This document shows positions 3,486-33,217 of a DNA stretch of 64,000 bases, in pieces. The notes beneath the pieces are model-generated. The model was not told the DNA's origin. It made no database searches and worked only from the letters and a program-made list of their open reading frames with translations. The position numbers and the translations under genes were made by a program. Source of the DNA: a virus; IMG/VR virus record IMGVR_UViG_3300027974_000021. The stretch is one strand, 5' to 3'. Within the stretch, counting starts at the first letter, position 1, and every line of letters starts with the position of its first letter.

Positions 3486-3659
3486 ATGGACTCAAGATTT
3501 GACCACATCAATTCCCTTCAAAAACAAAAACAAGCATTCGAATATCAATTAAGACAACAAAAAGAAAGAAATCAAACTCTTAAAGAAATACAACACATAG
3601 GTGTTATATTTGGTGTTGGTTTTTTATTTGGATTATTATTCAATGTCATATTCTTTTAA
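3486..3659 (+). CDS. Small membrane protein (57 aa, not in ORF track)
   Basis: MDSRFDHINS...IGVIFGVGFLFGLLFNVIFF; AAAAGG upstream, follows a promoter. Confidence 0.6.
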   Translation: MDSRFDHINSLQKQKQAFEYQLRQQKERNQTLKEIQHIGVIFGVGFLFGLLFNVIFF

Positions 3660-3828
3660 ATCACATAACGAATTAAATAAAAATTTGACTGATTACATTT
3701 CAACAGTCACTGATAAAGAAGACATTTCTAAAATACCGATCGAATCGATTAATGATTTTTTAAATGGTTTAGAGTCATTTTTAGAAGAATCAGCAAGTAA
3801 TTAAGGCGAAATTAAGGCGACTTCAATA

Positions 3829-8973: not shown

Positions 8974-9675
8974 ATGAAACTAAGTAAAGAAACACTTGCG
9001 ATTATGAAAAACTTCGCAGGTATTAATGCCAATCTAATGTTAAAGAATGGTAATAAAATATCAACAATATCGCCAGCAAAAAGTGTAATGGCTGTGGCAC
9101 AAATTTCAGAGAACTTGCCAATTAATGGTTCTGGGAATTTTGGTATATATGAATTAAACGATTTTCTATCAGCTTACACATTAATGGAAGATCCAGATTT
9201 AACATTTGCTGATAATTTTTGCATGATTTCTAAAGGTCATCAAAAAATTAAATTCTATTCAGCAGCAAGTGAAATGCTACTTGTTCCATCAAAAGAAAGT
9301 TTGCCTGTTTCTGATGATGTATCTTTTAATTTAAGAGCAGCAGATTTAGATATTATTTCAAAGTCAGCAGCAGTTTTAAAAGTAAGTGACATATCAATCG
9401 TATCAAAAGATGGTAAAGTAAGTGTTGAAGTTGCTGATAAAAAAGCACAACAAGCTGCAAAATCAGGACAATCAACAGCTAATACTTTTAATCTAGATAT
9501 TGGTACATCAGATAAAGAGTTTAAAGTGAATATGAAAGTTGATAATTTACAAAAAATTGTACTTACAGATTATGTAGTGACAGTTGATAGCAAAAAACTA
9601 TCTAAGTTTTCAGCAACTAAAGGTTCGCTAGTATATTACATCGCAATCGAATCTGATTCTGTAATCGGCAAATAA
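8974..9675 (+). CDS. gp45: Sliding clamp
   Basis: MKLSKETLAIMKNFAGIN, FGIYELNDFL, YYIAIE; AAGGAG RBS. Confidence 0.95.
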   Translation: MKLSKETLAIMKNFAGINANLMLKNGNKISTISPAKSVMAVAQISENLPINGSGNFGIYELNDFLSAYTLMEDPDLTFADNFCMISKGHQKIKFYSAASEMLLVPSKESLPVSDDVSFNLRAADLDIISKSAAVLKVSDISIVSKDGKVSVEVADKKAQQAAKSGQSTANTFNLDIGTSDKEFKVNMKVDNLQKIVLTDYVVTVDSKKLSKFSATKGSLVYYIAIESDSVIGK

Positions 9676-10227: not shown

Positions 10228-11177
10228 TAAACACATCTGAAAACCAATTTGTTTGGGTTGAGAAGTATCGCCCTCGCACAATAAACGAATGTATTTTACC
10301 TAAAAAATTTAAACTTACATTAAAGTCTTTCATTAAAGGAGGACAGATACCACACTTTCTATTTTATGGTACAGCAGGAGTTGGTAAAACTACTGTGGCT
10401 CGTGCACTATGTGATGAAATTGGTGCTGAGTATATAATCATAAATGGTTCTGAAGAGGGTCGTATGATTGACACTCTAAGAGTGAAGATTAAAGGATTCG
10501 CTTCAACTGTATCTTTGACTGCAGCAAAAAAAGTAATTATTCTAGATGAAGCTGATTATATGACTCCGAATATAATGCAACCAGCTTTACGAGCATTTAT
10601 AGAAGAATTTTCTTCTAATTGTAGATTTATACTTACTTGTAATTTTAAGAATAAAATTATTGATCCGATTAAATCAAGATGTTCTGTAGTTGACTTTAAA
10701 ATACCAAATGATGAGAGAGCAGTTATTGCTACTGATTTTTTCAATAGAGTTGTTGAGATCCTGGAAAAAGAAAATATAAAATACGATAAGAAAGTAGTCG
10801 CTACTCTTATACAAAAGTTCTTTCCTGACTTTAGAAAAACATTAAACGAACTACAAAGATATTCGGTAGGTGGTACTATCGACACAGGAGTTCTTGTGGG
10901 GGTATCAGATGAGTCTTACACACACTTATTTAAATATTTAAAGAATAAAGAGTGGGATAAAATGCGTGAGTGGATTGATCTTAATTCAGACATTGATACT
11001 ACAAATTTATTCTCAGAAATATTTGAAAAATGCCAACCAGCAATTGAAAAGAATTCAATACCAGAGTTGGTGTTAATACTAGCAGATTATCAATACAAGT
11101 CAGCTTTCGTAGCAGATGCGAATATTAATAAGATTGCTGCAATGACAGAGATAATGAAAAAATGTCAGTGGAAGTAA
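10224..11177 (+). CDS. gp44: Clamp loader large subunit
   Basis: WVEKYRP, GTAGVGKTT, ILDEAD, SRC. Confidence 0.97.
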   Translation: MINTSENQFVWVEKYRPRTINECILPKKFKLTLKSFIKGGQIPHFLFYGTAGVGKTTVARALCDEIGAEYIIINGSEEGRMIDTLRVKIKGFASTVSLTAAKKVIILDEADYMTPNIMQPALRAFIEEFSSNCRFILTCNFKNKIIDPIKSRCSVVDFKIPNDERAVIATDFFNRVVEILEKENIKYDKKVVATLIQKFFPDFRKTLNELQRYSVGGTIDTGVLVGVSDESYTHLFKYLKNKEWDKMREWIDLNSDIDTTNLFSEIFEKCQPAIEKNSIPELVLILADYQYKSAFVADANINKIAAMTEIMKKCQWK

Positions 11178-11572
11178 AAAAGTATAAAACAAATCCATTT
11201 AAGTTCGTCACAGCTATCAATTACAGTAAAGAAAACCTACATGAAACAGAGACTTTCGAAGAAGATTATTTGCCTTATATTATTAATAGATCTCTCTCTA
11301 TGTTTCCAGATACAGTCCAAATAGCTAATGAAATCAACATTTTGCACTATGTTCCAAAGAAGTGGCAATTTCTGTTTTACCTAAATATAGTCGCTAAGAA
11401 GAAAAGATATTCGAATAAAAAGTGGGCAAAAAAATCTAAAGATTCTAATGAACCTTTTATTATGGAATATTATAACGTTTCTGCTCAAAAAGCAAAAGAG
11501 ATATTATCCCTTTTAAAACCAGAGCAGATTGAAATTATTAAATCAAAATTTTATAAAGGTGGCATACAATGA
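11162..11572 (+). CDS. gp62: Clamp loader small subunit
   Basis: YLPYIINRSLS, KKKRYSNKKWAK, MEYYNVS; synteny. Confidence 0.9.
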   Translation: MSVEVKKYKTNPFKFVTAINYSKENLHETETFEEDYLPYIINRSLSMFPDTVQIANEINILHYVPKKWQFLFYLNIVAKKKRYSNKKWAKKSKDSNEPFIMEYYNVSAQKAKEILSLLKPEQIEIIKSKFYKGGIQ

Positions 11573-12036
11573 GTGAAGTTGAAAATAAACAAGAATCATT
11601 AGAGACTGTAAAAGAAGATTCAAATAAGTCTGTTCCATATGCATGGAGTCCAGACAAAATGTTAGAAGTTTTTCTGATCGAACCAGATAACTTTTTAAAA
11701 ATTAGAGAAACATTAACACGTATCGGTATCGCAAGTCGTACTGATAAAAAACTATATCAATCTTGTCATATATTACATAAACAAGGAAGATATTTTATCG
11801 TTCATTTTAAAGAATTATTCTCTTTAGATGGAAAAGAATCTAATATTACTACAAACGATATTGAAAGAAGAAATACAATAGCTGTATTATTGGCTGATTG
11901 GGGATTATTAAAAATTAAAGATCTTGCCCAAATTTCATCAAAAGCTTCTTTAAGTCAAATCAAAGTTTTAGCACATAAAGACAAAGCAGGTTGGGAACTT
12001 GTGGCTAAATATAATATTGGAAAAAGAGCAAAATAA
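11569..12036 (+). CDS. regA: Translational repressor RegA
   Basis: FLKIRETLTRIGIAS, LYQSCHILHKQGRYFIVHFKELF. Confidence 0.97.
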   Translation: MSEVENKQESLETVKEDSNKSVPYAWSPDKMLEVFLIEPDNFLKIRETLTRIGIASRTDKKLYQSCHILHKQGRYFIVHFKELFSLDGKESNITTNDIERRNTIAVLLADWGLLKIKDLAQISSKASLSQIKVLAHKDKAGWELVAKYNIGKRAK

Positions 12037-14360: not shown

Positions 14361-16865
14361 ATGAATTCTAAAATAGGTACAAATTTTTACACTAACGTTT
14401 CCACTACAGCCAACGATGTGCTCGTTCGAGCAGTCACTGATGTTGGTACTCGAATCCAAGAACGAATCCCTTTTAAACCACACTGTTATATTACCAAAGG
14501 AACTGGTGATACACCCTACAAAACACTAGACGGAAAACCTTGTTATAGAGTTAATTTTGACTCTATGAAACACGCAAGAACATTTTTTGAAGAATTTAAA
14601 ACAATCTCTAATTTTGACGTGCATGGAATGCTTTCATTCACTCATCAATATATTAATCAAGCATATCCTGAAGCAAGTTTAGATTTTGATTATTACAAAA
14701 TAAGAATCTATTCTTTAGATATAGAAACAACAACTGAGAATGGTTTTCCAGACGTAAATAATCCAACTGAATCTATTATACTTCTTTCAGTACAAGACAT
14801 TCATACTAAAAAAATCATCACATGGGGATTAAAAAAATATACAGGAGAACGTACAGATGTTGAATATCGTGCTTTCCCTGATGAGAATGCTATGCTTGAT
14901 GATTTTATTAAGTGGTGGCATAAAAATTGTCCAGACATTATTACTGGTTGGAATGTAGGTGCATTTGATACAGTTTATCTTTATAAAAGAATTCAGATAT
15001 TGCTAGGTGATTATACTGCTAAGAAATTAAGTCCATGGTCTTTTATTTCATCTAAAACAGTTTCAGTAAGAAATAGACAAACAACATATATTGATTTTGA
15101 AGGAACATCTCTTTTAGATTATATGAGTTTGTATAAGAAATATACTTATACGAATAAAGAATCTTATAAGCTTGTTGATATAGCACAAGATGAATTAGGT
15201 GTGACTAAATTAGATCACAGTGAATATGCTTCATTTAAAGAATTTTATACAAAGAACTGGAATAAGTTTGTTGATTATAACATAAGAGATACTGAATTAA
15301 TTACTCAACTAGAAGATAAAATGCGTCTTTTAGAATTAATTGTCACTTTTGCATATAAAGCGAAAGTTAATTTTACTGACGTTTATTCTCAAGTAAGAAC
15401 TTGGGATATGATTATTCACAATCACCTTATACAGAAAAATATTATTATTCCACCTAAAAAACCAATAGGAAAAAGTCAACAATTTGAAGGAGCATATGTA
15501 AAAGATCCAATCTTAGGAATGCATAAATGGGTTGTTGGGTTTGACTTAACTTCACTTTATCCACATTTAATTATGCATTATAATATCTCACCAGAAACAA
15601 TTCAAAATAAAACTTACAAATCAGGAGTAGATCATTATCTAAACAATCCAGCTGAGTTTCAAGATGATGAAACTGTTGCTGTAAATGGTTCAGTTTATAC
15701 AAATAAAATTGAGGGAATGCTTCCTAATATTATGAATACTTTTTATGCTCAAAGAGATATTGCTAAAAAGAAATTAATAGAAGCTGAAAAACAATTTCAA
15801 ACAACCAAAGATCCTAAGCTTAAAAAAGTTATATCAAAATATAATAACGAACAAATGGCTTATAAGATCGCTCTGAATAGTGCTTATGGTGCGATAGGTA
15901 ATGAACATTTTAGATATTTCGACATACGTATGGCTGAAGCAATCACACTTGGTGGACAACTTGCCATAAAATGGATTCATAATAAGATGAATGATTATGT
16001 GAACAAAATTTTAAAAACAGAAAATAAAGATTATATTATTGCAGTTGATACAGATTCAATTTATGTAAATTTTGAAAAAATAGTAGAGAAAGCATTCTTA
16101 GATGTACCTGATAGAGCAAAGATTGTAGCATTTATAGATAAAATTTGTCAAGATAAAATAATACCATATATCAATACTTGTTATGATGAATTAGCAAAAC
16201 GTCATAATGCTAAGAATAAAATGATAATGAAACGAGAGAGTATTTCTGATAGAGCAATATGGACTGCTAAGAAAAGATATATTCTTTCAGTATTAGATCA
16301 AGAGGGTATTTCTTATAGTACACCAAAATTTAAAATAATGGGTTTAGAAATTGTTAAATCAAGTACACCTATGATTGTAAGGAAAAAGCTTAAAGATGCT
16401 CTTCCTATTATATTATATGGCAATCAATATGAATTATTTAATTTTATTAACAACTATAAAAAAGAATTTTATAGTTTAAGACCAGAACAGATTGCATTCC
16501 CTAGATCATGTCAAGGTATAAACGAATATGCTGATTCTGTAAAGATTTATAAACTATCAACACCAATGCATACTCGTGGTGCGTTAATGCATAATCATTT
16601 TGTAAATAAAATGAAACTAGCGAAGAAAATTGCTCTTATAAGAGAAAGTGATAAAATTAAATTCATACATCTTAAAACACCAAATCCTTTACAATCTACA
16701 AATGTAATTGCTTTTTTAGACACACTACCAAGTGAATTTAAAGTAGATCAATATATTGATTATGATACAATGTTTCAAAAAGTATTTTTAGATGCTTTAA
16801 AGTTGATTATTACACCATTGGGGTGGAAAACTGAAGAAACAAGTAGTTTAGAAAATTTCTTTTAA
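14361..16865 (+). CDS. gp43: Family B DNA polymerase
   Basis: DIETT exonuclease I, FDLTSLYPH, KIALNSAYG, VDTDS; C-terminal clamp peptide SLENFF. Confidence 0.98.
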   Translation: MNSKIGTNFYTNVSTTANDVLVRAVTDVGTRIQERIPFKPHCYITKGTGDTPYKTLDGKPCYRVNFDSMKHARTFFEEFKTISNFDVHGMLSFTHQYINQAYPEASLDFDYYKIRIYSLDIETTTENGFPDVNNPTESIILLSVQDIHTKKIITWGLKKYTGERTDVEYRAFPDENAMLDDFIKWWHKNCPDIITGWNVGAFDTVYLYKRIQILLGDYTAKKLSPWSFISSKTVSVRNRQTTYIDFEGTSLLDYMSLYKKYTYTNKESYKLVDIAQDELGVTKLDHSEYASFKEFYTKNWNKFVDYNIRDTELITQLEDKMRLLELIVTFAYKAKVNFTDVYSQVRTWDMIIHNHLIQKNIIIPPKKPIGKSQQFEGAYVKDPILGMHKWVVGFDLTSLYPHLIMHYNISPETIQNKTYKSGVDHYLNNPAEFQDDETVAVNGSVYTNKIEGMLPNIMNTFYAQRDIAKKKLIEAEKQFQTTKDPKLKKVISKYNNEQMAYKIALNSAYGAIGNEHFRYFDIRMAEAITLGGQLAIKWIHNKMNDYVNKILKTENKDYIIAVDTDSIYVNFEKIVEKAFLDVPDRAKIVAFIDKICQDKIIPYINTCYDELAKRHNAKNKMIMKRESISDRAIWTAKKRYILSVLDQEGISYSTPKFKIMGLEIVKSSTPMIVRKKLKDALPIILYGNQYELFNFINNYKKEFYSLRPEQIAFPRSCQGINEYADSVKIYKLSTPMHTRGALMHNHFVNKMKLAKKIALIRESDKIKFIHLKTPNPLQSTNVIAFLDTLPSEFKVDQYIDYDTMFQKVFLDALKLIITPLGWKTEETSSLENFF

Positions 16866-19587: not shown

Positions 19588-19756
19588 AAAAATATTATGA
19601 AAACCTTAAAAGAATTAAAAATAGAATTAAAAGAACTTCAAAACGAACACGAGTTTGAATCAACTAACTATCTAAAAAACAATTATAATCTCAAAAAAAT
19701 AGAAGAAGATATTGTTGAATTACAAGATACAATCAATAAAAGGGAGAAATATACAA

Positions 19757-20854
19757 ATGCCTGATTTTTTAAAAGACGCAATAAAAGATATTAATAACGA
19801 ATATGCTGGTACAGCTGATGGTGATTTAGTCGGAGATTCTACATCATTTGTAGATACTGGATCTTATATATTCAATGCTTTATTATCTGGTAATATCTAT
19901 GATGGCTTACCAGCAAACAAAATTACTGCATTAGCAGGAGAACCATCAAGTGGAAAAACATTTTTCACATTAGGAATTTGTAAAACATTTCAAGAATTAG
20001 GGAAACAAGCAGGCATTATATACTTTGAAACAGAGGGTGCTATCACTAAGGATATGTTAGCTGAAAGAGGAATAGATCCTAAAAGATTTGTATTAATACC
20101 TGTATCAACAGTACAAGAATTTAGAAATCAAGCTACAAAAATTTGTGATAATATTGATAGAGTTCCACTTGAAGCAAGACATCCTATTTTAATTGTATTA
20201 GATTCTCTTGGTAATCTTTCAACTGAAAAAGAAGTAAAAGATATTATTGAAGGAAACGACACACGTGATATGACGAGAGCACAATTAATTCGTGGTGCTT
20301 TCAGAGTACTTGCTTTAAGATTATCTAAAATACAAGTTCCTATGATTGTCACAAACCACACATATGATGTAATTGGGGCTTATGTACCAACAAAAGAAAT
20401 GGGTGGTGGTTCTGGATTAAAATATGCTGCATCAACAATCGTGTATCTATCTAAAACAAAAGACAGAGACAGTGAAAAAAATGTAGTTGGTAATATTGTA
20501 AAAGCCACTTTACAAAAATCTAGATTTACAAGAGAGTTTTTGAAAGCTGAAATAAAACTTTCGTATGAAAAAGGTCTTGACAGATACTATGGATTAATTG
20601 ACGTTGCAGTTGATGCTGGTATATGGAAAGATGAGGGTGGAAGAATTGATGTTGGTGGAACCAAAGTTTTTGGTAAAGCTATTAAAGAAAACCCTGAGAA
20701 ATATTTTACAAAAGAAGTATTAGATAAAATAAATGAATATACTCAAAAAGCATTCAGATATGGATCTACTATTGAACTATCAGATAAAGTGAGTGAAATA
20801 CAACCAGAAGAGAAAAAAGATGGTGGACGAAAAACAAAATCAAAATCCGAATAA
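19757..20854 (+). CDS. uvsX: RecA-like recombinase UvsX
   Basis: [45 protein letters not shown]; start moved to the ATG after AGGGAG. Confidence 0.97.
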
Positions 20855-21335
20855 ATCGGAAATTCCAGCTACAAGGGAAAATTTATTTCCTTTCATTAAT
20901 CCTGACTCATATCAGTCTAAAGAAGCATATGAAGCAGCAAGGGATGAGTATCTTAAATCACAACCAGTAATTGTACCACCATATGAAACTTTAGAAACTA
21001 AAGGTAAATATGGAGCAAATGAACTTAGATTTAAAAATGGAATACTTGAAAATGTAGTTGTATCCTTTGGTAAAGTATCATTTGAAAATCAAACAGATGG
21101 TAATATTAAATTATTCTACGAGTATGATGCTGATGTAGAAAAATCATTACATCCATTTAATGTAGAGATACCAGAAAGTAAGCAATTACTTGAAAGACAT
21201 TTAGGAGACTTTCTTATGGCTTGTATAGAAGAACAAGTTAGAAATAAAACTATTTTGTTTAGAGGTGGCAGCGAAGAAATGGAAGCATATACAAAAAAAA
21301 CTAAAACTGATGAGAATAGAAACAACAATACTTAA
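20820..21335 (+). CDS. Conserved hypothetical protein at the gp40 position
   Basis: [11 protein letters not shown]...LFYEYD...LGDFL; between uvsX and gp41. Confidence 0.6.
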
Positions 21336-22713
21336 AAATTTACTTCATGATGAGGATTATGCTCGTAAAGTTGTACCACATTTACGTGAAGAATATTTCC
21401 AAGATAAAATTGAAAGAGCAATTGCTAGTCAAATACTAAAGTTTTTTATTAAATTTAATAAACCAGCTACAGTTGAAGTTATTGATATTGAACTTGGTAA
21501 TGATAAAGCTTTATTTGAAACTGATTATCAACAAGCACAAGCTTATACGAAAGACTTAAAGAATAAAGAAGATATAAATTCTAAGTGGTTAGTTGACGCA
21601 ACTGAAAAATTTTGTAAAGATAAAGCTGTCTATAATTCTATTATGGATAGTATTAAAATTATAGATGGTCGTGATAAAGTAAGAAAACAAGACAGTATTC
21701 CTTCTTTACTATCTGATGCACTTTCAGTTTCTTTTGATAAATCAGTTGGTCATGATTATCTTGAAAATGCGGACGATCGTTTTGATTTCTATAAACGTAC
21801 AGAAGAAAAAATACCATTTGATATAGATTTGTTTAATACTATTACACGTGGTGGTGTAAGTAATAAAACTTTGAATGTTGCCTTAGCAGGAACAGGAGTT
21901 GGTAAATCTTTATTCTTATGTCATTTTGCATCAGCAAATTTAATGAATAATCTTAATGTACTCTATATAACTTTAGAGATGTCTGAAGAAAAGATTGCTG
22001 AACGTATTGATGCGAATTTATTAAATGTCACTATGGATGAGTTAAAAATCCTAGAGAAAATAGATTTTACTTTACGTGTTGATAGAGTGAAAGAAAAAAC
22101 TAAAGGAAAACTTGTTATAAAAGAGTTTCCTACAGCAACAGCACATGTTGGTCATTTTAGATCATTACTTGATGAACTAAAAATGAAAAAAGATTTTAAA
22201 CCAGATGTTATTTACGTGGATTATTTAAATCTATGTGTTTCTGCTAGATTAAAATATGGTGGAAATAATAATTCTTACACTGTTATTAAGAGCATAGCAG
22301 AGGAATTAAGAGGACTAGCAGTACAATATGATTTACCTATAATGACTGCTACTCAAACAACAAGACAAGGATTTACTTCTTCTGATTTAGGATTAGAAGA
22401 TACTTCTGAATCATTCGGTCTTCCAGCAACAGCTGACTTTATGTTTGCGATTATTGCTACTGAAGATATGATTAAAGAAGGAATAGCAAGTGTAAAACAA
22501 TTAAAGAATCGTTATAACGATCCTAATTATTATAAAAGATTTGTCGTTGGTGTTGAAAGAAACAAGATGAAAGTCTATAATCTTGAAACAGAACATATGA
22601 AAAGACATATGGCACTAGCCGACGCAGGAGATTCTACACCTGTATTTGATAAAGGAAATATAGGTGAAAGAATAAAGGCAGAAACAACATCATCGTTTAA
22701 ATTCGATGAATAA
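21310..22713 (+). CDS. gp41: Replicative DNA helicase
   Basis: AGTGVGKSL, ITLEMSEE, VDYLN, SESFGLPATAD, QLKNRY. Confidence 0.97.
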   Translation: MRIETTILKNLLHDEDYARKVVPHLREEYFQDKIERAIASQILKFFIKFNKPATVEVIDIELGNDKALFETDYQQAQAYTKDLKNKEDINSKWLVDATEKFCKDKAVYNSIMDSIKIIDGRDKVRKQDSIPSLLSDALSVSFDKSVGHDYLENADDRFDFYKRTEEKIPFDIDLFNTITRGGVSNKTLNVALAGTGVGKSLFLCHFASANLMNNLNVLYITLEMSEEKIAERIDANLLNVTMDELKILEKIDFTLRVDRVKEKTKGKLVIKEFPTATAHVGHFRSLLDELKMKKDFKPDVIYVDYLNLCVSARLKYGGNNNSYTVIKSIAEELRGLAVQYDLPIMTATQTTRQGFTSSDLGLEDTSESFGLPATADFMFAIIATEDMIKEGIASVKQLKNRYNDPNYYKRFVVGVERNKMKVYNLETEHMKRHMALADAGDSTPVFDKGNIGERIKAETTSSFKFDE

Positions 22714-22728
22714 CATAAAGGAAAAAAG

Positions 22729-24027
22729 ATGACAACAAAAGTGATAACCGCAGCAACTAAAGTTGATTGTGAGCATTTGCTTGCGACTTTTGTAGATCAT
22801 TCACACTATGACACTTTGGTGGAATATGATTGTGATTTCTATGCTCCATCTGTAGATGGGATAAACAGCGAGAAAAACATTCTGTTTAAGTTTAGAAAAA
22901 ATTGGTTTACGAAAGAGCAACAAGACTTAGCATATAAAGGTCTTCGAGAAGCAGCAGTCGAAACACAAAATCGTGGCATAGCAGCAGGACCAAAAGGTTC
23001 AAAACTTGGTGGTCGTGACTGGGTGACGGAATATCAAGAAGAAATGCTTGAAGCATTATCTAAGTATGAAACTACACTTGATGGTTCTAATCCTATAACA
23101 ACAATCACAGAAAAATATAAAAACAAAGATAAAACAGCAGCAGGAAACAGAGGATCTGTTTGGCTTAAGAATAAAGTCACTGATGAAGGATTTATCTTTG
23201 AAGAGTGGTTAAATGAAATAAAATCATTATCTCGTGATGAAATAGTGAAAGAAGCAATACGAGTAAAGTCTAAATTGACTTCAACAACTTCATATGCGCA
23301 AGCAGTGTGGTCTGGTATTGCTGGATATTTTGATAGATATCCTCGTATTCCTTATGGAAGAGCAACATCATTTACTGAAAAGAATCCTGAGAAATTTGCT
23401 ATGGGGTTCCCATTCTTACAAAAACTTTCAGATGGTTTTAAACAATTACTGCCTGAACGTTTTGCGAAACAAAAAGAAGCATGTGACAAAATGGATCCAA
23501 AGTTTATTATTCCAGGAACTGTATTTACTACAGCGACTGTAAATAAAACTTTTAGAACAGCAGCACATAGAGATGCTGGTGATTTAAATGAAGGATTTAG
23601 TAATCTTACAGTAGTATCAAACAATGGTAAGTACAAAGGAGGTTATCTAGTACTACCAGAATACAAAGTTGCTGTAAATATACGTCCAGGAGATTTATTA
23701 TTAATTAACAATCACGAGGGTATTCATGGAAATACTGAAATGACTGTTGAAGATCCTGAAGCAGAACGTATTTCTTTCGTTTGTTATTTCAGAGAAAAGA
23801 TGCTAGAACTTGGCTCTTGGAATTATGAATTAACAAGAAAAAATTACGTTGAAGATAGACGTAGAAATAAAGACCATCCATTACAAAGAGAACTTTGGAA
23901 TGGAGTTTCAGAAAATATGTGGAAAGATCAAGAATGGTATGATTATCTAACATCTAAATTAGGTAAAGAATCATTATACAAATACCATCCTGAAGCAAAT
24001 AAATCTTCACTTGAAGCATTTTTTTAA
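22729..24027 (+). CDS. TET/JBP-family 2OG-Fe(II) dioxygenase (5-methylpyrimidine oxidase)
   Basis: FTTATVNKTFRTAAHRDAGD (HxD), GGYLVLPEY, GDLLLIN.H..IHGNT (distal H), RISFVCYFREKM (2OG-binding R). Confidence 0.85.
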   Translation: MTTKVITAATKVDCEHLLATFVDHSHYDTLVEYDCDFYAPSVDGINSEKNILFKFRKNWFTKEQQDLAYKGLREAAVETQNRGIAAGPKGSKLGGRDWVTEYQEEMLEALSKYETTLDGSNPITTITEKYKNKDKTAAGNRGSVWLKNKVTDEGFIFEEWLNEIKSLSRDEIVKEAIRVKSKLTSTTSYAQAVWSGIAGYFDRYPRIPYGRATSFTEKNPEKFAMGFPFLQKLSDGFKQLLPERFAKQKEACDKMDPKFIIPGTVFTTATVNKTFRTAAHRDAGDLNEGFSNLTVVSNNGKYKGGYLVLPEYKVAVNIRPGDLLLINNHEGIHGNTEMTVEDPEAERISFVCYFREKMLELGSWNYELTRKNYVEDRRRNKDHPLQRELWNGVSENMWKDQEWYDYLTSKLGKESLYKYHPEANKSSLEAFF

Positions 24028-24029
24028 AC

Positions 24030-25034
24030 ATGTCTCTCCATGAATTTTTAGGAGAGGAACGAGCACTAGATTGGTATTATACTGCTAATTCTTTAAACAA
24101 GGGATTAAAACTTGGTTATCGGAGAGTATCTGGTAAGATAGGATTAACAAATAAAGAATCTGGTGTTCGTGGCGCATGGGTAGAAAAAAGAATTGCACTC
24201 TTTAAGAACTTATTCGCATCTGGTTATTCAATAATTCCTTTTTCAACACCAACAGAAGCAACAGCAGCAGATGGATTTACATCTGTTGATACATACACAA
24301 ATTGTGATATACTTATATTAGAATTTGGTGGAACAAATTTACAATTCTATAAAAAAGATTGGGACAAAACAGTTGAACTGATTAAGTCACATTCTGGTAA
24401 AATAATATTCATTAACGACGATCCTGATCTACCATTTCTTTGGGAGTTATTACCAAATGAAAAATGGGATAGATGGGTAGTCGCAGCAAACGCAACCAAC
24501 TCTGCAGAAGTTTCAACAATTCTTAAATGCCCAATAGGTGTAAGAGTTGTAGATTTACCAATGGCGAATGGAATGTCATTTGAATCTTTTTCAAATGGTG
24601 ATATAGATAAAACTGTTTATATCGGAAGACCAAATGGAAGAACAAAATACTTCAAAGAATTTTTAAAGTCATCAAGTCTTGAAATATCAGGAAAACCAAA
24701 AGAGTGGACTGATTTTAATATAAACGTTATTGAAAATCCACAACAAAAAGATCGAAGAAAATTTTATAGAAATTATAAAGGATGTTTAACTGTTTATGAT
24801 AGTAAGCATAAAACATCTGGATGGAGAACTGGTCGTGCTTTTCATGCACTTTATGCTGGTATTCCAGTTTGTGCACCATCTGGAAATAATGGTTTAAATT
24901 GGACATATCCTGTAGAAACTGCAGAGGACTTAACTAAATTTACATCGTTATCAGATGAAAAACGTAAATTGATTTGGGAAAAACAAAAATCAATTATTCA
25001 AAATGAAACAAATATAGATTTAATTTTATTATGA
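24030..25034 (+). CDS. DNA glycosyltransferase, T4 beta-glucosyltransferase-like (GT-B)
   Basis: Colinear with T4 BGT as recalled: KIIFINDDPDLPF~KIYYLFTDIRLPF, TVYIGRPNGR~VIYGGSFRSGQR, TGRAFHALYAG~TLRVWETMASD, RKLIWEKQKSII~RKEMLSIQHDIL. Confidence 0.78.
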   Translation: MSLHEFLGEERALDWYYTANSLNKGLKLGYRRVSGKIGLTNKESGVRGAWVEKRIALFKNLFASGYSIIPFSTPTEATAADGFTSVDTYTNCDILILEFGGTNLQFYKKDWDKTVELIKSHSGKIIFINDDPDLPFLWELLPNEKWDRWVVAANATNSAEVSTILKCPIGVRVVDLPMANGMSFESFSNGDIDKTVYIGRPNGRTKYFKEFLKSSSLEISGKPKEWTDFNINVIENPQQKDRRKFYRNYKGCLTVYDSKHKTSGWRTGRAFHALYAGIPVCAPSGNNGLNWTYPVETAEDLTKFTSLSDEKRKLIWEKQKSIIQNETNIDLILL

Positions 25035-25480
25035 TAGTATCTTACGATATGGATGGTGTTCTTGCACTAAACCCACCACCAAATATAAAAAAATGGGGAC
25101 ATATGAATGGGGCTGAAAGAAGAGCAAGAAAAGAATTTCTATATGATTGGTATAGTTCTGCTGAACTATTATATAAACCAACTGAAGATAAATTTCATGT
25201 AATTTCAGCAAGAAAGAAAGACCAACGCACATGGGAAATAACGATGAATTGGTTAAATAAATATTTTCCTGGAAGAGTAATTTCATTATCTTTATTAAAT
25301 GTACCAAGAACTGTGAACAATGTAGTAAAGTTTAAGAATGATGCGATTAACTCAATTGGTGCAATCGAGCATACTGAAGATAATAAAAAAGTATTAAGAG
25401 GTATTTCAAAAATTAATAAGACTATTAAATTATACTTTTGGGAAAAGGATATGACAAACAAGGAAATATTCAATGGCTAA
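25031..25480 (+). CDS. HAD-superfamily phosphatase
   Basis: SYDMDGVL (DxDG), ISARK, K, EDN. Confidence 0.8.
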   Translation: MIVSYDMDGVLALNPPPNIKKWGHMNGAERRARKEFLYDWYSSAELLYKPTEDKFHVISARKKDQRTWEITMNWLNKYFPGRVISLSLLNVPRTVNNVVKFKNDAINSIGAIEHTEDNKKVLRGISKINKTIKLYFWEKDMTNKEIFNG

Positions 25481-28248: not shown

Positions 28249-29351
28249 TGGCTGCAAATCCATCTGAATTTATTGCAAACCTTTTTAACGTTAAATCGAT
28301 AATTGAAATAATTAAAGAGTCTCCAGCAAAAGTAATTTTTAATAAAAATGATATAGTAATTTATACAGCAGATAAATCTACAAGAAGCAATGCTTTTGAT
28401 AACTTTAGAAAAGCTGCAGATAAAATTAAATCAAATTCTAAATCTAAATTTAAAAATTATCATATAAAACCCTCTTCTAAATCTTCACTTGGCGTATTTC
28501 AATTCTTTTTAGATTCAGCCAAATTACAGAAAGCATCAGGTGATATTTACTTTAAACCTATTATAACAAAAGGTTCAGGTGGTAAAGTTTTTGAAAATGA
28601 ATTAGAAAAAGATTTAAATGCTTACTTTAAAGGAGAGCCAGTAAAAAATTTAAAACATGCAGATACAATTCAATCTTTATTCTCAAATAAAACATTTCTT
28701 AGTATATATAAAATAACACCAAAAAATTTAAATGCATTTGAAGCGAAAGCAGTAGGAAATAGAAATTCAAAAAGACCAGCAAGTTTTTCAAATGGTCAAA
28801 TATCTCTTGGGAATAACACAGGAGAAGCTGTAAGTGATATTGATATTATTGGTCCGAATAAATCTATATATTGTTCTCTTAAATTTTCATCATCTTATTA
28901 CATCTATAATGGAAGTATGAAAGAAATATTTGAAGTCACTCCTAGAGTGAGAGATGAAGCATATAAGTTCTTTGGTTTAGATGGAATCGGAATGGCTGGA
29001 TTTGGCGAGATATTTCGTTCAAATGTAGTTTCTCCCAAAAGTCTACAAGTAGTTAGGAAAAATTTAGCAAAAACTATTCAATTATCTCTTGGGCAAGAAG
29101 TGACACTAATTAATAAATTCGGTCCAGGAAAAAATGATATTGATGTAATTTTTAAAGGATATACGTCTGATGTTTTAATTTCAGCAGATCCAGTTTACAA
29201 ATATCCTGAATCTGGAAAACGTAAATATGCAGCAATAGAATTTCCAGCAACTATCAATAACGACAAATATGCTGTTGGAATGCAATTTAGAGGAACAACA
29301 GAGGGTGCACTTACACCAAGATATTTAAGAATATTATTAAAAAAAATATGA
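28248..29351 (+). CDS. Putative restriction-like PD-(D/E)xK endonuclease
   Basis: GKVFENEL...AVSDIDI...IYCSLK. Confidence 0.5.
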   Translation: MAANPSEFIANLFNVKSIIEIIKESPAKVIFNKNDIVIYTADKSTRSNAFDNFRKAADKIKSNSKSKFKNYHIKPSSKSSLGVFQFFLDSAKLQKASGDIYFKPIITKGSGGKVFENELEKDLNAYFKGEPVKNLKHADTIQSLFSNKTFLSIYKITPKNLNAFEAKAVGNRNSKRPASFSNGQISLGNNTGEAVSDIDIIGPNKSIYCSLKFSSSYYIYNGSMKEIFEVTPRVRDEAYKFFGLDGIGMAGFGEIFRSNVVSPKSLQVVRKNLAKTIQLSLGQEVTLINKFGPGKNDIDVIFKGYTSDVLISADPVYKYPESGKRKYAAIEFPATINNDKYAVGMQFRGTTEGALTPRYLRILLKKI

Positions 29352-30574
29352 AACAATTTAATGAATACCTTGTAGAATCAGTTAATGCTCATATGGAGCA
29401 TTTAGAAGACTTAGTCTTTAATGAAGGATTATCAGGCACTAAAAAAGCTATTAATTTCCTTTATGATTTAAGAAAAATGCTTCAAGGTAAGTCTACAAGT
29501 AAATTAAAGACCACAGTTAAATGGGATGGTGCTCCTGCTATTTTCGTAGGAATAGATCCTAAAGATAAAAAGTTTTTCGTTTCAACTAAGTCTATTTTTA
29601 ATGCAACACCAAAAGTATATAAATCTGTGAAAGAAATACAACAAGGTGAAGAGAATAAAGATTTAAGTAATAAACTTATTACAGCATTTGAAGAATTTTC
29701 TAAAGTAGTTAAGTCAGGCATTTATCAAGGTGATATAATGTTCACAAAAGATACTTTAAAGAAAACTTCAATTGAAGGTGAAAGTTATATTACATTTCAT
29801 CCAAATACAATTGTATATGCGATACCTGCAAATACAGCATTAGCAAATACTATATCAAAGGCAAATATAGGTGTAGTATTTCATACAACTTATAAAGGAT
29901 CTTTAGGTAAGCTTACAGCTGAGTTTGGACAATCAATTGTAGATAGATTTAAAAAGTCATCAACTATATGGGTGGATGATGCAACTTATAAAGATGTATC
30001 AGGATCTGCTACATTTACTAAAGCTGAATTATCAAATTTAGATGCATTGCTTGAGAGAGTAGAGAAACTTTTTTCTAAAATCAATAATAAAGTTATAACA
30101 GATATTCAAGCTGATAAAGAATTACTTGAACTAATTAAAATATATAATAATTCTAAAATTAAAGAGGGTGAAAAAATAACAAACGTAAAAGCACATGTTG
30201 CTGGTTTATTTCATTTTATACACGATCGTTATCAAGCAGAAATAGATAGTAAGAAAACAGATAAAGCAAAAGATAGATACAAGGCTGAAAGAGAAAAAGT
30301 TTTAAAGTACTTTTCAGCTCATAAACAAGAAGACATTATAGGAGTATTTGATCTTACAAATGCTATTGCCGATGCTAAAAAGATTATTATAGCTAAGATG
30401 AATGAAGCATCAGAAATAGGTACTTTTTTAAGAACAGATAAAGGGTTTGTTCCAACAGGAGTAGAGGGTTTTGTAGCTATTGATAAAGTAGGAAATGCTA
30501 TAAAAATCGTTGATAGACTTGAGTTTTCACGTGCTAATTTTTCACCAGATATATTAAAAGGTTGGCAAAGATAA
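29348..30574 (+). CDS. Ligase-fold nucleotidyltransferase-like protein, probably virion-packaged
   Basis: TVKWDG (motif I), QGDIMF (III), EGFVAID (IV), IKIVDR (V); N-terminus MKQFNEYLVE resembles a capsid-targeting sequence. Confidence 0.65.
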   Translation: MKQFNEYLVESVNAHMEHLEDLVFNEGLSGTKKAINFLYDLRKMLQGKSTSKLKTTVKWDGAPAIFVGIDPKDKKFFVSTKSIFNATPKVYKSVKEIQQGEENKDLSNKLITAFEEFSKVVKSGIYQGDIMFTKDTLKKTSIEGESYITFHPNTIVYAIPANTALANTISKANIGVVFHTTYKGSLGKLTAEFGQSIVDRFKKSSTIWVDDATYKDVSGSATFTKAELSNLDALLERVEKLFSKINNKVITDIQADKELLELIKIYNNSKIKEGEKITNVKAHVAGLFHFIHDRYQAEIDSKKTDKAKDRYKAEREKVLKYFSAHKQEDIIGVFDLTNAIADAKKIIIAKMNEASEIGTFLRTDKGFVPTGVEGFVAIDKVGNAIKIVDRLEFSRANFSPDILKGWQR

Positions 30575-30624
30575 ACACTAAAACTACTAAATATAGCATA
30601 TAATACGGATGGATAACTTGAAAC

Positions 30625-32931
30625 ATGAAGACAATAAAACAACTATTATCGGAATTACCGAACAAATCTCTTATATTTGCATTCGGTCGCTTTAACCCAC
30701 CAACAGTTGGGCACGAACTTTTGATCTCAAAAGTTGAAGCACTTTCAAAGAAAACATCAATCCCATATCGTATTTACACAACAGCTACTCAAGACAAAAA
30801 GAGTAATCCATTATCTCAAAAAGATAAAATTAAGTATATGGAAAAGTCTTTTCGTAATGCTCATATCTATGCTGCGAAAGGAAACATTATACAATTATTA
30901 CAAAGTTTTGAGAAAGAAGGAATTAAAGAAATTCATTTAGTTGTTGGTAGTGATAGAACAAAAGAATTTGAATCTCTTTTAAACAAGTATAATGAAAGAG
31001 AGTATAACTTTAGTAAAATAGAAATTCATTCAGCAGGAGAAAGAGACCCTGATAGTGATGATGCTGATGGTATGTCAGCAAGTAAGATGAGAAGTGCAGC
31101 ATCTAAAGGAGATTATAAATCTTTTGAAAAAGGTGTCACTAAAAAACTTACAGACATTGATACTAAAAAAATGTATAATGATGTTCGTAAGGGACTGGGT
31201 TTAAAAACAGAATCTTTTGAAATTAATATTTCAAATAATCAAAACGAATTAAGAGAAAAATATTTTAAAGGTGAAATATTTAAAGTAGGAACAACAGTTA
31301 AAGACGATAAAGGAGTGTACGAAATTATGGACAGAGGAACAAACTATATAACAGTTATAAACGAAAATGGAGAGTTAAGCAAGAAATGGCTTGATTCAGT
31401 AAAGGAAGTTATTACAGATATGAATTATAAAAACGAAGCTAAAGACGAACATCAAATTTCTTATAAAGGATTTACAACTTCTAATTTTGAAATTGTTCCT
31501 GAACTAAAACCAATTATTGAATCAGTAATTTCATCTGAAACAGATTCAGTAGCAATTATTAATGCACTCAAATCAATTGATGAATCACTAAAATTTTATA
31601 AACAAAATAAAGATATATTTCAAGTTCCTTTAATGAAAGGGATAGATGCTTTAAATAATATAGATCATGCAGTGTCAGGTATAGTTGCTGATTTAGTTTT
31701 AAAACTTCCAAAAGGTACATTTAAAGAAACATCAATCACTGAAGCATCTGATAATCCATTTAACTTCACATCAGCTGATAAAATTAAAATAGCAAGAATT
31801 ATAGCTGGTGCTTTAGGAATAGATAATCCTGAGAAAATGTCTAGCCCTGAACAATTAATTAATCTAGGATTAAGAAAATTAAGAACAAAAAGAATTACAC
31901 CTGAATTATCTGATGTAGTAAATCAAATGTTAAAAACAGCAGATATGTTAGATGTTAAGTATGATAAAAAATTATTACCACAAGCAATGCAAGAAGCAAC
32001 TGGTGATAAACAAGAAAGAATTACAACATTAAAAGACAGAGTGTCAGCTCTTTTAGCAAAATTAGGTAAAATTAATCCTGCTGATGAGGATGCTAAAACT
32101 CAAATGGCAATTATTAAATCTGATATAGCAACAGCTAGATTAAGATTACAAGGATTACAAAGTAAAGAAGCTGTAGATGTACTGGGACCATTGGGTTCTA
32201 TAGATATACAAAATGATCCAATTACACCAGCGATTATGCCATCTTTTATGAAGTTTGGCGAAGAAGTAGAAAATTTAAAAGAAATGAATAAGTACACTGT
32301 CAAAACAGTTGTAAAAGATCCAGCAACAATGGCAGGTGGTGAGAAAAGTGAGAATAAAGAATTATCAAGAGTTGTTTTCGCTAAGACACCAGATGATGCA
32401 AAAGAAAAAGTTAAAAAAGTATTAAAGACTACTGGATATTCAGTTTTATCTCAACAAATAATTAAAACTGAAACAGTAAAAGAAGAAGAGTTAAAAGAAG
32501 CAGGTGCAGGTCTTTGGGCAAACATACAAGCGAGACGTGAAAAAGGATTAAGACCAAAACGTCCAGGAGAAGAAGGATATCCTAAAACTTTAGACATTGA
32601 ATCAAAAGAAAATGAAAAAGATGAAGAAGAAAAAGAATTAAAAGAAAAAGATAAAAATGATCCATGTTGGGTAGGTTATAAACAAGTTGGAATGAAAAAG
32701 AAAGATGGAAAAGAAGTTCCAAATTGTGTACCTGAGTCAACTAAATTAGAATCTGTTTTAACTTTAATACGAAGAATTAAAGAACAAAAAAAGACTATGT
32801 TAGTTGCACGACCAAATAATTTAATGAAAGCAGGACAAGAGAGAGTAGTAAGAATTCCTGTAAGTAAGTGGCAAGACTATCGTAAAAAAGGATTTATACA
32901 AGCAGAGGAAAAAGATAATGAAAACTCTTAA
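30625..32931 (+). CDS. Cytidylyltransferase-like (HIGH/HUP) domain polyprotein, probably virion-packaged
   Basis: FGRFNPPTVGH, VVGSDR, AGERDPD, MSASKMR; MKTIKQLLSE leader; appended modules such as DPCWVGYKQVGMKKKDGKEVPNCVPE. Confidence 0.8.
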   Translation: MKTIKQLLSELPNKSLIFAFGRFNPPTVGHELLISKVEALSKKTSIPYRIYTTATQDKKSNPLSQKDKIKYMEKSFRNAHIYAAKGNIIQLLQSFEKEGIKEIHLVVGSDRTKEFESLLNKYNEREYNFSKIEIHSAGERDPDSDDADGMSASKMRSAASKGDYKSFEKGVTKKLTDIDTKKMYNDVRKGLGLKTESFEINISNNQNELREKYFKGEIFKVGTTVKDDKGVYEIMDRGTNYITVINENGELSKKWLDSVKEVITDMNYKNEAKDEHQISYKGFTTSNFEIVPELKPIIESVISSETDSVAIINALKSIDESLKFYKQNKDIFQVPLMKGIDALNNIDHAVSGIVADLVLKLPKGTFKETSITEASDNPFNFTSADKIKIARIIAGALGIDNPEKMSSPEQLINLGLRKLRTKRITPELSDVVNQMLKTADMLDVKYDKKLLPQAMQEATGDKQERITTLKDRVSALLAKLGKINPADEDAKTQMAIIKSDIATARLRLQGLQSKEAVDVLGPLGSIDIQNDPITPAIMPSFMKFGEEVENLKEMNKYTVKTVVKDPATMAGGEKSENKELSRVVFAKTPDDAKEKVKKVLKTTGYSVLSQQIIKTETVKEEELKEAGAGLWANIQARREKGLRPKRPGEEGYPKTLDIESKENEKDEEEKELKEKDKNDPCWVGYKQVGMKKKDGKEVPNCVPESTKLESVLTLIRRIKEQKKTMLVARPNNLMKAGQERVVRIPVSKWQDYRKKGFIQAEEKDNENS

Positions 32932-33217
32932 AGACTTTTTAACAGAACAAAAGCAAGAACTACCAAAACCATTTATTGAACAAATAAAAAAGTACACGTA
33001 TCATAACGATCACTTTAAAGCAAGAGCATATATTGCTACATTAATGGGAAATAAAAGACTTGCTAAATTATATGATTCACTAGAAAAACTACATGATGAA
33101 TATTATAGTTATTTTGGAAATGATGTAATTGATCTTCGATCAAAAATTGAAGTAAATTTAAAAAATGATATAAAAAATTATTATTCCAATTGGGAAGAAG
33201 TAATTAAAGCATTATAA
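32918..33217 (+). CDS. Probable internal head protein
   Basis: MKTLKDFLTE leader resembling the T4 internal-protein capsid-targeting sequence. Confidence 0.6.
   Translation: MKTLKDFLTEQKQELPKPFIEQIKKYTYHNDHFKARAYIATLMGNKRLAKLYDSLEKLHDEYYSYFGNDVIDLRSKIEVNLKNDIKNYYSNWEEVIKAL

Follow-up and report, generated by a model that had tools for sequence, protein, structure and literature searches.

The stretch of DNA considered here, a window of 64,000 nucleotides from the IMG/VR virus record IMGVR_UViG_3300027974_000021, belongs to a T4-like phage whose complete genome measures 144.8 kb, carries direct terminal repeats and contains 191 open reading frames (ORFs). Two adjoining genes of DNA modification are the subject of this study: a TET/JBP-family 2-oxoglutarate/Fe(II) DNA dioxygenase of 432 amino acids (22729..24027; hereafter TET) and a GT-B DNA glycosyltransferase of 334 amino acids (24030..25034; GT) with a fold like that of T4 beta-glucosyltransferase (BGT), whose ORF begins two bases past the TET stop codon. 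They lie within the replication module, which also encodes the sliding clamp gp45 (8974..9675) and the family-B DNA polymerase gp43 (14361..16865), and the gene of the gp41 helicase is found directly upstream of TET; the genes discussed are on the + strand throughout. The original prediction had claimed that both modifying enzymes carry the peptide with which the polymerase docks on its clamp, and had pointed to positions 23995-24056, which span the TET tail and the first GT codons. The peptides were borne out by translation, gp43 ending with KTEETSSLENFF (TSSLENFF), TET with PEANKSSLEAFF (KSSLEAFF) and GT starting with MSLHEFLGEE. The premise that gp43, gp55 and gp33 of T4 hold the clamp by such tails also agrees with the literature, in which they were described as interchangeable gp45-binding epitopes, functional also when internal (PMC2988020); as read, the T4 tails are SLDFLFG in gp43 and SLDFLYEAND in gp55.

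The identity of the four proteins was established by profiles and structure models. TET matched PF12851 (E 2.4e-23) with a profile score of 82.6 bits, compared to a curated cut-off of 34.9, and its iron ligands H280-x-D282 and H333 (HxD...H) were invariant in 52 homologues. The structure model of TET (predicted local distance difference test, pLDDT, 90.5) displayed a double-stranded beta-helix fold like that of solved TET enzymes, with NgTET1 (4lt5), TET2 (7ne6) and CcTet (8jkk) as Foldseek top matches (E ~1e-10). For GT, no Pfam or PHROG family was recovered at E <= 0.01. Its model (pLDDT 94.9) gave the best Foldseek TM-scores with T4 BGT (1j39, TMq 0.69, E 3e-8), and TMq values of 0.66-0.69 with probability 1.00 were obtained against 1j39, 1qkj and 1c3j, at about 14% identity in the structural alignments, so that the name glycosyltransferase holds at the level of predicted fold and of context, not of membership in the BGT sequence family. 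The clamp was identified by PF09116 (gp45-slide_C) and by phrog_223, ‘DNA polymerase processivity factor’ (E 4.4e-55), and has 34 homologues; gp43 was identified by PF00136, PF03104 and phrog_262 (E 4e-301).

The TET tail SSLEAFF (24004..24024) and the gp43 C-terminal peptide SSLENFF (16842..16862), which served as reference clamp-binding epitope and follows the same consensus as SLDFLFG of T4 gp43, are identical at six of seven positions, and gp43 and TET are the only two of the 191 ORFs of the complete genome which match the C-terminal pattern. In the 120 closest homologues of TET, with identities of 58-99%, a tail of the form S/T-L-E/D-x-F/L-F was kept without exception: position 1 is S in 103 and T in 15 of them, position 2 L in 117, position 3 E in 75 and D in 44, position 4 is free, position 5 is F in 112 and L in eight, and position 6 is F in all 120, followed by no residue or by a single small one. 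The linker of three to five residues between the conserved KYHPEA segment and this tail occurred in 52 distinct forms among the same homologues, and purifying selection appears to act on the tail peptide only, not on the linker before it. At the end of the TET model pLDDT falls to 72 and then to 47, with a short helix at residues 428-431; the tail is thus predicted to sit on a short, flexible and sequence-variable linker, as is typical of gp45-binding peptides. Among representatives at 50% identity, nearly all TETs of the long architecture possess the tail, even some with a different preceding C-terminal region, and those of about 300 residues do not. Many of these TET/JBP homologues of about 300 amino acids (P0260, P0284, P0300, P0333, P0347, P0354, P0377 and others) have an ending of their own, ELERAKxRxxGDPLY/F. 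They belong to the size class of ParB-linked TETs (contexts checked in four), and the ending could be a partner-binding peptide of the short TETs, for ParB or perhaps for the host beta clamp.

The C-terminal pattern was also scanned across 84 related loci with 1147 ORFs, the expectation being taken from the motif's internal rate. It was found in 146 ORFs, compared to 0.39 expected, and these comprised 79 TETs, 27 gp43 polymerases and 40 TET-adjacent enzymes of unrelated families. GNAT acetyltransferases beside TET bear the tail PSLEDFLK in 11 of 13 cases and group-1 glycosyltransferases (GT1) SSTLDDLFG in all five; the TET-associated glycosyltransferase (TAGT) ends with NTLDEFFG and the amino acid:DNA transferases (AADT) with GLENFL, GLEMFFA or GLEALW. 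Three smaller families are also among the 40. Tailed neighbours of TET, including proteins of 213 and 385 amino acids without known family, occur in the loci L080, L032, L066, L023, L059, L064 and L092 (for example L080:3828-4469, L032:11294-12625 and L066:4015-4815). Outside of those families a single ORF of 942 matched, and Pfam calls that one TAGT too. Judged by these sequences, the tail is restricted to gp43 and DNA-modifying enzymes and is present in no other gene family of the 84 loci.

Polymerase and dioxygenase share the same core in the 35 genomes in which both ends were readable (26 distinct pairs), and gp43 ends with SSLEDFF(G) in 27 of 29 related loci. Isolated phages display the pairing as well, with ATLDSFFA in gp43 and ATLGDFFV in TET of DLP6, and ATLEDFFG and ISLEEFFV, respectively, in C48C1. 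Weaker is the pair of Cr30, whose TET tail GATLF matches the core poorly and resembles the gp33 type more, and in L092 the TET tail STLDSLFS stands against DSLDEFFS of gp43, the T-L/L-F variant of TET being unmirrored in the polymerase. In a T4-like contig of 203 kb (L108:12155-15665), gp43 is split by an HNH endonuclease gene into an exonuclease and a polymerase part.

Natural controls were provided by TET homologues without a tail. The complete genome of S-CBWM1 encodes a long, tail-less homologue and yielded neither a gp43 match nor a gp45 profile match; another long, tail-less homologue was found in L111, a cyanophage-like contig of 79 kb with a replication module of PolA type, and four contigs of ParB type carry ParB together with a short, tail-less TET. 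In these cases the tail-less homologues sit in phages which show no sign of a T4-type replisome; one further contig of 6 kb (P0264) was uninformative in context. The test set out in advance, namely that the motif should be kept by homologues in T4-like phages and be absent from phages lacking the clamp, thus came out in favour of the prediction in the phages examined.

These data bear on the explanation that the tail has no role in targeting, being either a part of the dioxygenase's own structure or catalysis or a resemblance due to chance. It draws on the AADT of a mycobacteriophage, which ends with YAGLRRFK in a phage that is not expected to encode gp45 (gp45 was not searched for there), so that the GLExF tail may be partly intrinsic to the AADT family and such an end may exist where there is no clamp. 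Due to this end, GLRRFK, AADT was given reduced weight as a full tail-bearing family. However, 146 matches where 0.39 were expected, the same peptide on unrelated folds, its place where confidence in the model is lowest, beyond a hypervariable linker that separates it from the fold, and the tail-less homologues with the same catalytic domain in phages without clamp all speak against this explanation, which is extremely improbable; chance and structure were rejected as causes on the linker and motif counts (52 linkers, n = 120) and on the excess in the related loci.

A second explanation accepts the tails as docking peptides and assigns them to another common partner, such as gp32, the helicase or a scaffold that builds a modification complex, or lets the modifying enzymes assemble with one another through them. 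A tail common to several members of one pathway is what a multi-enzyme assembly would produce, and the case for gp45 is built on sequence comparison. Yet the polymerase has the same peptide and its receptor in T4 and RB69 is gp45 (PMC2988020, PMC6212786), homologues from phages without gp45 lack the tail, and no result points to another receptor. A different partner is therefore regarded as very unlikely, and TET probably docks on gp45 with its tail SSLEAFF as the polymerase does with its own.

The N-terminal peptide of GT, MSLHEFLG (24030..24053), is a possible docking peptide for gp45 at the opposite end of its protein. GT is the only one of the 191 ORFs of the complete genome with the N-terminal pattern. 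Among 121 members of its family, 54 start with M-S-L-x-x-F-L/F-(G/D)-E, all at an identity of at least 52%, in 35 the protein begins right at the conserved IGYRRVSGK core, 21 carry a motif-free extension, and the remaining 11 are fragments with unreadable start. The peptide was detected in all 13 GTs beside a tailed TET and also in the GT of the T4-like locus L113, flanked there by gp46/47 and gp45, while the GTs without it were found in ParB-type phages in four of the four cases whose context was looked up. Residues 1-10, with a helix at residues 3-7, have the lowest confidence in the GT model (pLDDT 64), and the C-terminus is well ordered (pLDDT 90), which may be the reason why the peptide is located at the N-terminus. 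SLHEFLG agrees with the S/T-L-D/E-x-L/F-F consensus in part, with H at the acidic position and then GEE. The case is moderate, and weaker than that of TET, and by its sequence and distribution the peptide is probably a gp45-docking device.

Alternatively, only the dioxygenase docks, the GT arm contacts the dioxygenase or DNA or stabilises the fold, and GT reaches its substrate by diffusion or via TET. This would fit the placement of the motif opposite to that of the tails and its histidine, and residues 13-22, which pack on the domain and are present also in ParB-type GTs lacking the first ten; moreover the enzyme closest in fold, T4 beta-GT, does not bind gp45 (PMC13216743). It is at odds with the conservation of the first eight to ten residues in the 54 members, which were in T4-like contexts only in the cases checked, and with the singularity of this N-terminus in the genome, and gp45 motifs are known to function when they are not C-terminal (PMC2988020, PMC6212786). 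Docking of the dioxygenase only is hence considered unlikely, and a docking arm on GT is preferred.

Three consecutive genes of the same window have similar starts, MKQFNEYLVE (29348-29380), MKTIKQLLSE (30625-30657) and MKTLKDFLTE (32918-32950), the last of which resembles SLHEFLGE of GT. Their products (29348-33217) are, in this order, a DUF6267 protein, a cytidylyltransferase-like protein of 768 amino acids and a protein of 99 amino acids. PHROG searches with these three genes and with small ORFs near gp32 revealed no function for look-alike N-termini.

Besides the AADT end, several observations weigh against docking on gp45 as proposed here. The transcription ligands of the clamp in this phage have diverged, to judge from their ends, from the gp43-type peptide: gp55 (phrog_234, genome 21012-21611) ends with NNIETIDLDNDKDNDYN and gp33 (phrog_254, genome 102163-102726) with GSTATLPF, from which it follows that the clamp accepts looser peptides and that sequence alone is not decisive. 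A loose look-alike, EGLANFFS, terminates the baseplate hub protein (phrog_150, genome 106957-107694, - strand) and most likely arose by chance. Strict covariation of the residue after FF was not observed among the gp43 and TET pairs compared, of which some matched (none/none, G/G, N/N, S/S) and others did not (G/A, A/V, G/none). The peptide of GT stands at the N-terminus, with His in place of the Asp or Glu of the tails, and no N-terminal gp45 ligand was documented in the literature searched. In T4 the contact of alpha-GT with gp45 was reported not to be the main determinant of glucosylation pattern and levels, the alpha/beta ratio being driven mainly by expression level and not by clamp affinity (PMC13216743), and docking in the present phage may consequently matter less in vivo than proposed.

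Prediction of the complex adds little to this. When the gp45 trimer (with alignments) was modelled with TET residues 373-432, the score was 0.58 (runs 0.60, 0.51 and 0.58), compared to 0.00 for the best of three controls. Of 80 solved complexes 58 attain the score mark, as do two of 110 mismatched pairs, and among those passing, scores of 0.60 or less belong to seven of the 80 solved complexes and to both of the mismatches. Contact agreement did not fall below 69%, nor partner pLDDT below 41. A pass may stem from nothing more than similarity to clamp-peptide complexes already solved, and the model lends weak support to docking of TET on gp45. On balance, the claim that the two enzymes dock on the clamp was strengthened strongly for TET, by conservation, co-occurrence with gp43 and gp45 and the controls, and modestly for GT; physical binding is what we infer.

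The replication module would supply what such docking needs. In addition to gp45, the window encodes a gp62-like small subunit of the clamp loader (11162..11572) and regA (11569-12036), both assigned by matches to phrog_225 and phrog_242, with which the clamp system is a complete one of T4 type; the UvsX recombinase (19712-20854) and the gp41 helicase (21265-22713) were assigned by phrog_97 and phrog_19. The N-termini of some small clamp-loader subunits are themselves reminiscent of clamp peptides, with MSLFKDD in gene 62 of T4 (L109), and MADLFKE in L089:20783-21163 and L092:19125-19505. An ORF of 67 amino acids (GTG start; about 53 amino acids from the first Met) at 3601-3804 on the + strand of the window has the C-terminus NGLESFLEESASN, a hydrophobic-acidic ending without family match which resembles clamp epitopes of gp55 type.

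With respect to the substrate, the original prediction had placed the oxidase in a pathway without a sequence-specific methylase. The absence of a methylase stood, as no match to a C5-cytosine methylase (PF00145) was detected in the complete genome; because of this absence TET is more probably a thymine dioxygenase than an oxidase of 5-methylcytosine (5mC), and for such an enzyme a missing sequence-specific methylase is expected. Close homologues of TET in related T4-like contigs are followed by genes for a GATase, an AADT and a DNMK-like kinase, which are enzymes of thymidine hypermodification. In non-T4 phages this BGT-like GT, together with a small HAD-like gene, comes after ParB and a short TET, which is the arrangement published for ParB-dependent thymine dioxygenases (PMC13229309). 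TET of the present phage thus most likely acts as a thymine dioxygenase producing 5-hydroxymethyluracil (5hmU), not a 5mC oxidase, and 5hmU would then be glycosylated by the adjoining GT. A small HAD-like gene with DxDGV start (MIVSYDMDGV) and without clamp-like tail follows GT also here (25031..25480), and HAD-like proteins of about 150 amino acids with this start were found after GT at L113:10981-11424 and L098:10924-11391. Since this gene follows GT in T4-like as well as in ParB-type phages, TET, GT and HAD seem to travel as one module. Searches against isolated phages gave no match for the TET-GT region with blastn and no homologue of GT with tblastn.

Combining these features, the following mechanism is proposed. 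The clamp loader places gp45 at primer ends, and gp45 stays on freshly copied phage DNA. There the TET tail on its flexible linker would hold gp45 as SSLENFF of gp43 does, the N-terminal arm of GT with SLHEFLG would repeat this device at the other terminus of its protein, and the three pockets of gp45 could hold polymerase, dioxygenase and transferase. Thymine of nascent phage DNA would be oxidised to 5hmU and then glycosylated, and selection of phage over host DNA could be accomplished by clamp docking. If the tail is real, it offers a simple physical answer to the question how post-replicative thymine oxidation is confined to phage DNA, and, if the proposal is true, a sequence signature for spotting DNA-acting enzymes in T4-like metagenomic contigs.

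More tentatively, gp45 might be the required DNA-tracking partner of the hypermodification enzymes of T4-like phages, that is, of the thymine dioxygenase, GTs, GNAT and perhaps AADT, although we regard this as rather doubtful. The clamp would then take the place which ParB has at the short dioxygenases of other phages. Such a requirement would explain how an enzyme with plain thymine as substrate is kept to phage DNA, and why ParB-less dioxygenases of clade C1 were inactive alone in E. coli. Some ParB-less clade C1 enzymes of the 5mYOX group, which are not equated with the TET subfamily described here, did indeed show no activity in E. coli (PMC13229309), and the same was reported for some ParB-less candidates for thymine dioxygenases in heterologous hosts (PMC13229309; Burke et al., PMC8256090). 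For the field of phage 5mYOX enzymes, a missing clamp is a testable explanation of these results.

The clamp-binding peptide as a device and the presence of a DNA-modifying enzyme on a clamp are both already known. Like gp43, gp55 and gp33 of T4 and RB69, for which a crystal structure of the RB69 clamp with a peptide is cited in PMC2988020, the TET presented here combines a short hydrophobic-acidic peptide, a flexible linker, the S-L-D/E-x-L/F-F consensus and a cognate clamp in the same genome; the carrier, however, is a dioxygenase (and GT) instead of a polymerase or transcription factor. T4 DNA ligase, which binds gp45 via an internal helical LDFLF loop of its nucleotidyltransferase domain with a dissociation constant of about 11 uM (PMC6212786), demonstrates that a different DNA enzyme can take up the motif and that a C-terminal place is not required. 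Its loop binds as a short helix, and short helices are also predicted for the TET tail and the GT arm. In the ligase the motif is internal and its binding was measured, whereas the motifs of TET and GT are terminal and their docking is predicted from sequence.

The closest functional parallel is T4 alpha-GT, which binds gp45 (Sommer et al., 2004), as was confirmed by co-purification in PMC13216743. As in the present proposal, a phage DNA glycosyltransferase is associated there with the sliding clamp and proposed to modify DNA during replication. T4 alpha-GT nevertheless ends with ...EQFDIITK, without a terminal peptide like that of gp43, and acts on 5-hydroxymethylcytosine incorporated during synthesis; the GT presented here has the beta-GT-like fold. 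Of the assumption that clamp-tethered TET and GT were undescribed, the part on GT did not hold because of this enzyme. The part on TET stands, as the literature searched contained no report of a clamp tail of polymerase type on a TET/JBP dioxygenase or of the spread of the clamp tail over unrelated hypermodification enzymes of T4-like phages; in the searched literature on phage TET, 5mYOX and GT, genes of clamp and clamp loader were mentioned only as neighbours, and no clamp-binding peptide was mentioned.

With the ParB-dependent and ParB-independent phage thymine dioxygenases of the 5mYOX group (PMC13229309; Burke et al., PMC8256090) TET shares the TET/JBP fold, the lack of a neighbouring C5-methylase and the linkage to GTs or to genes for GATase, kinase and AADT. 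The TET subfamily described here differs by an extra N-terminal domain of about 190 residues, by the absence of ParB and by a polymerase-type tail. In eukaryotes, a comparable principle is realised by DNMT1 and PCNA, where a PIP-box recruits a DNA-modifying enzyme to nascent DNA for maintenance methylation behind the fork; there the enzyme is a methyltransferase which copies an epigenetic mark, rather than one which would mark viral DNA.

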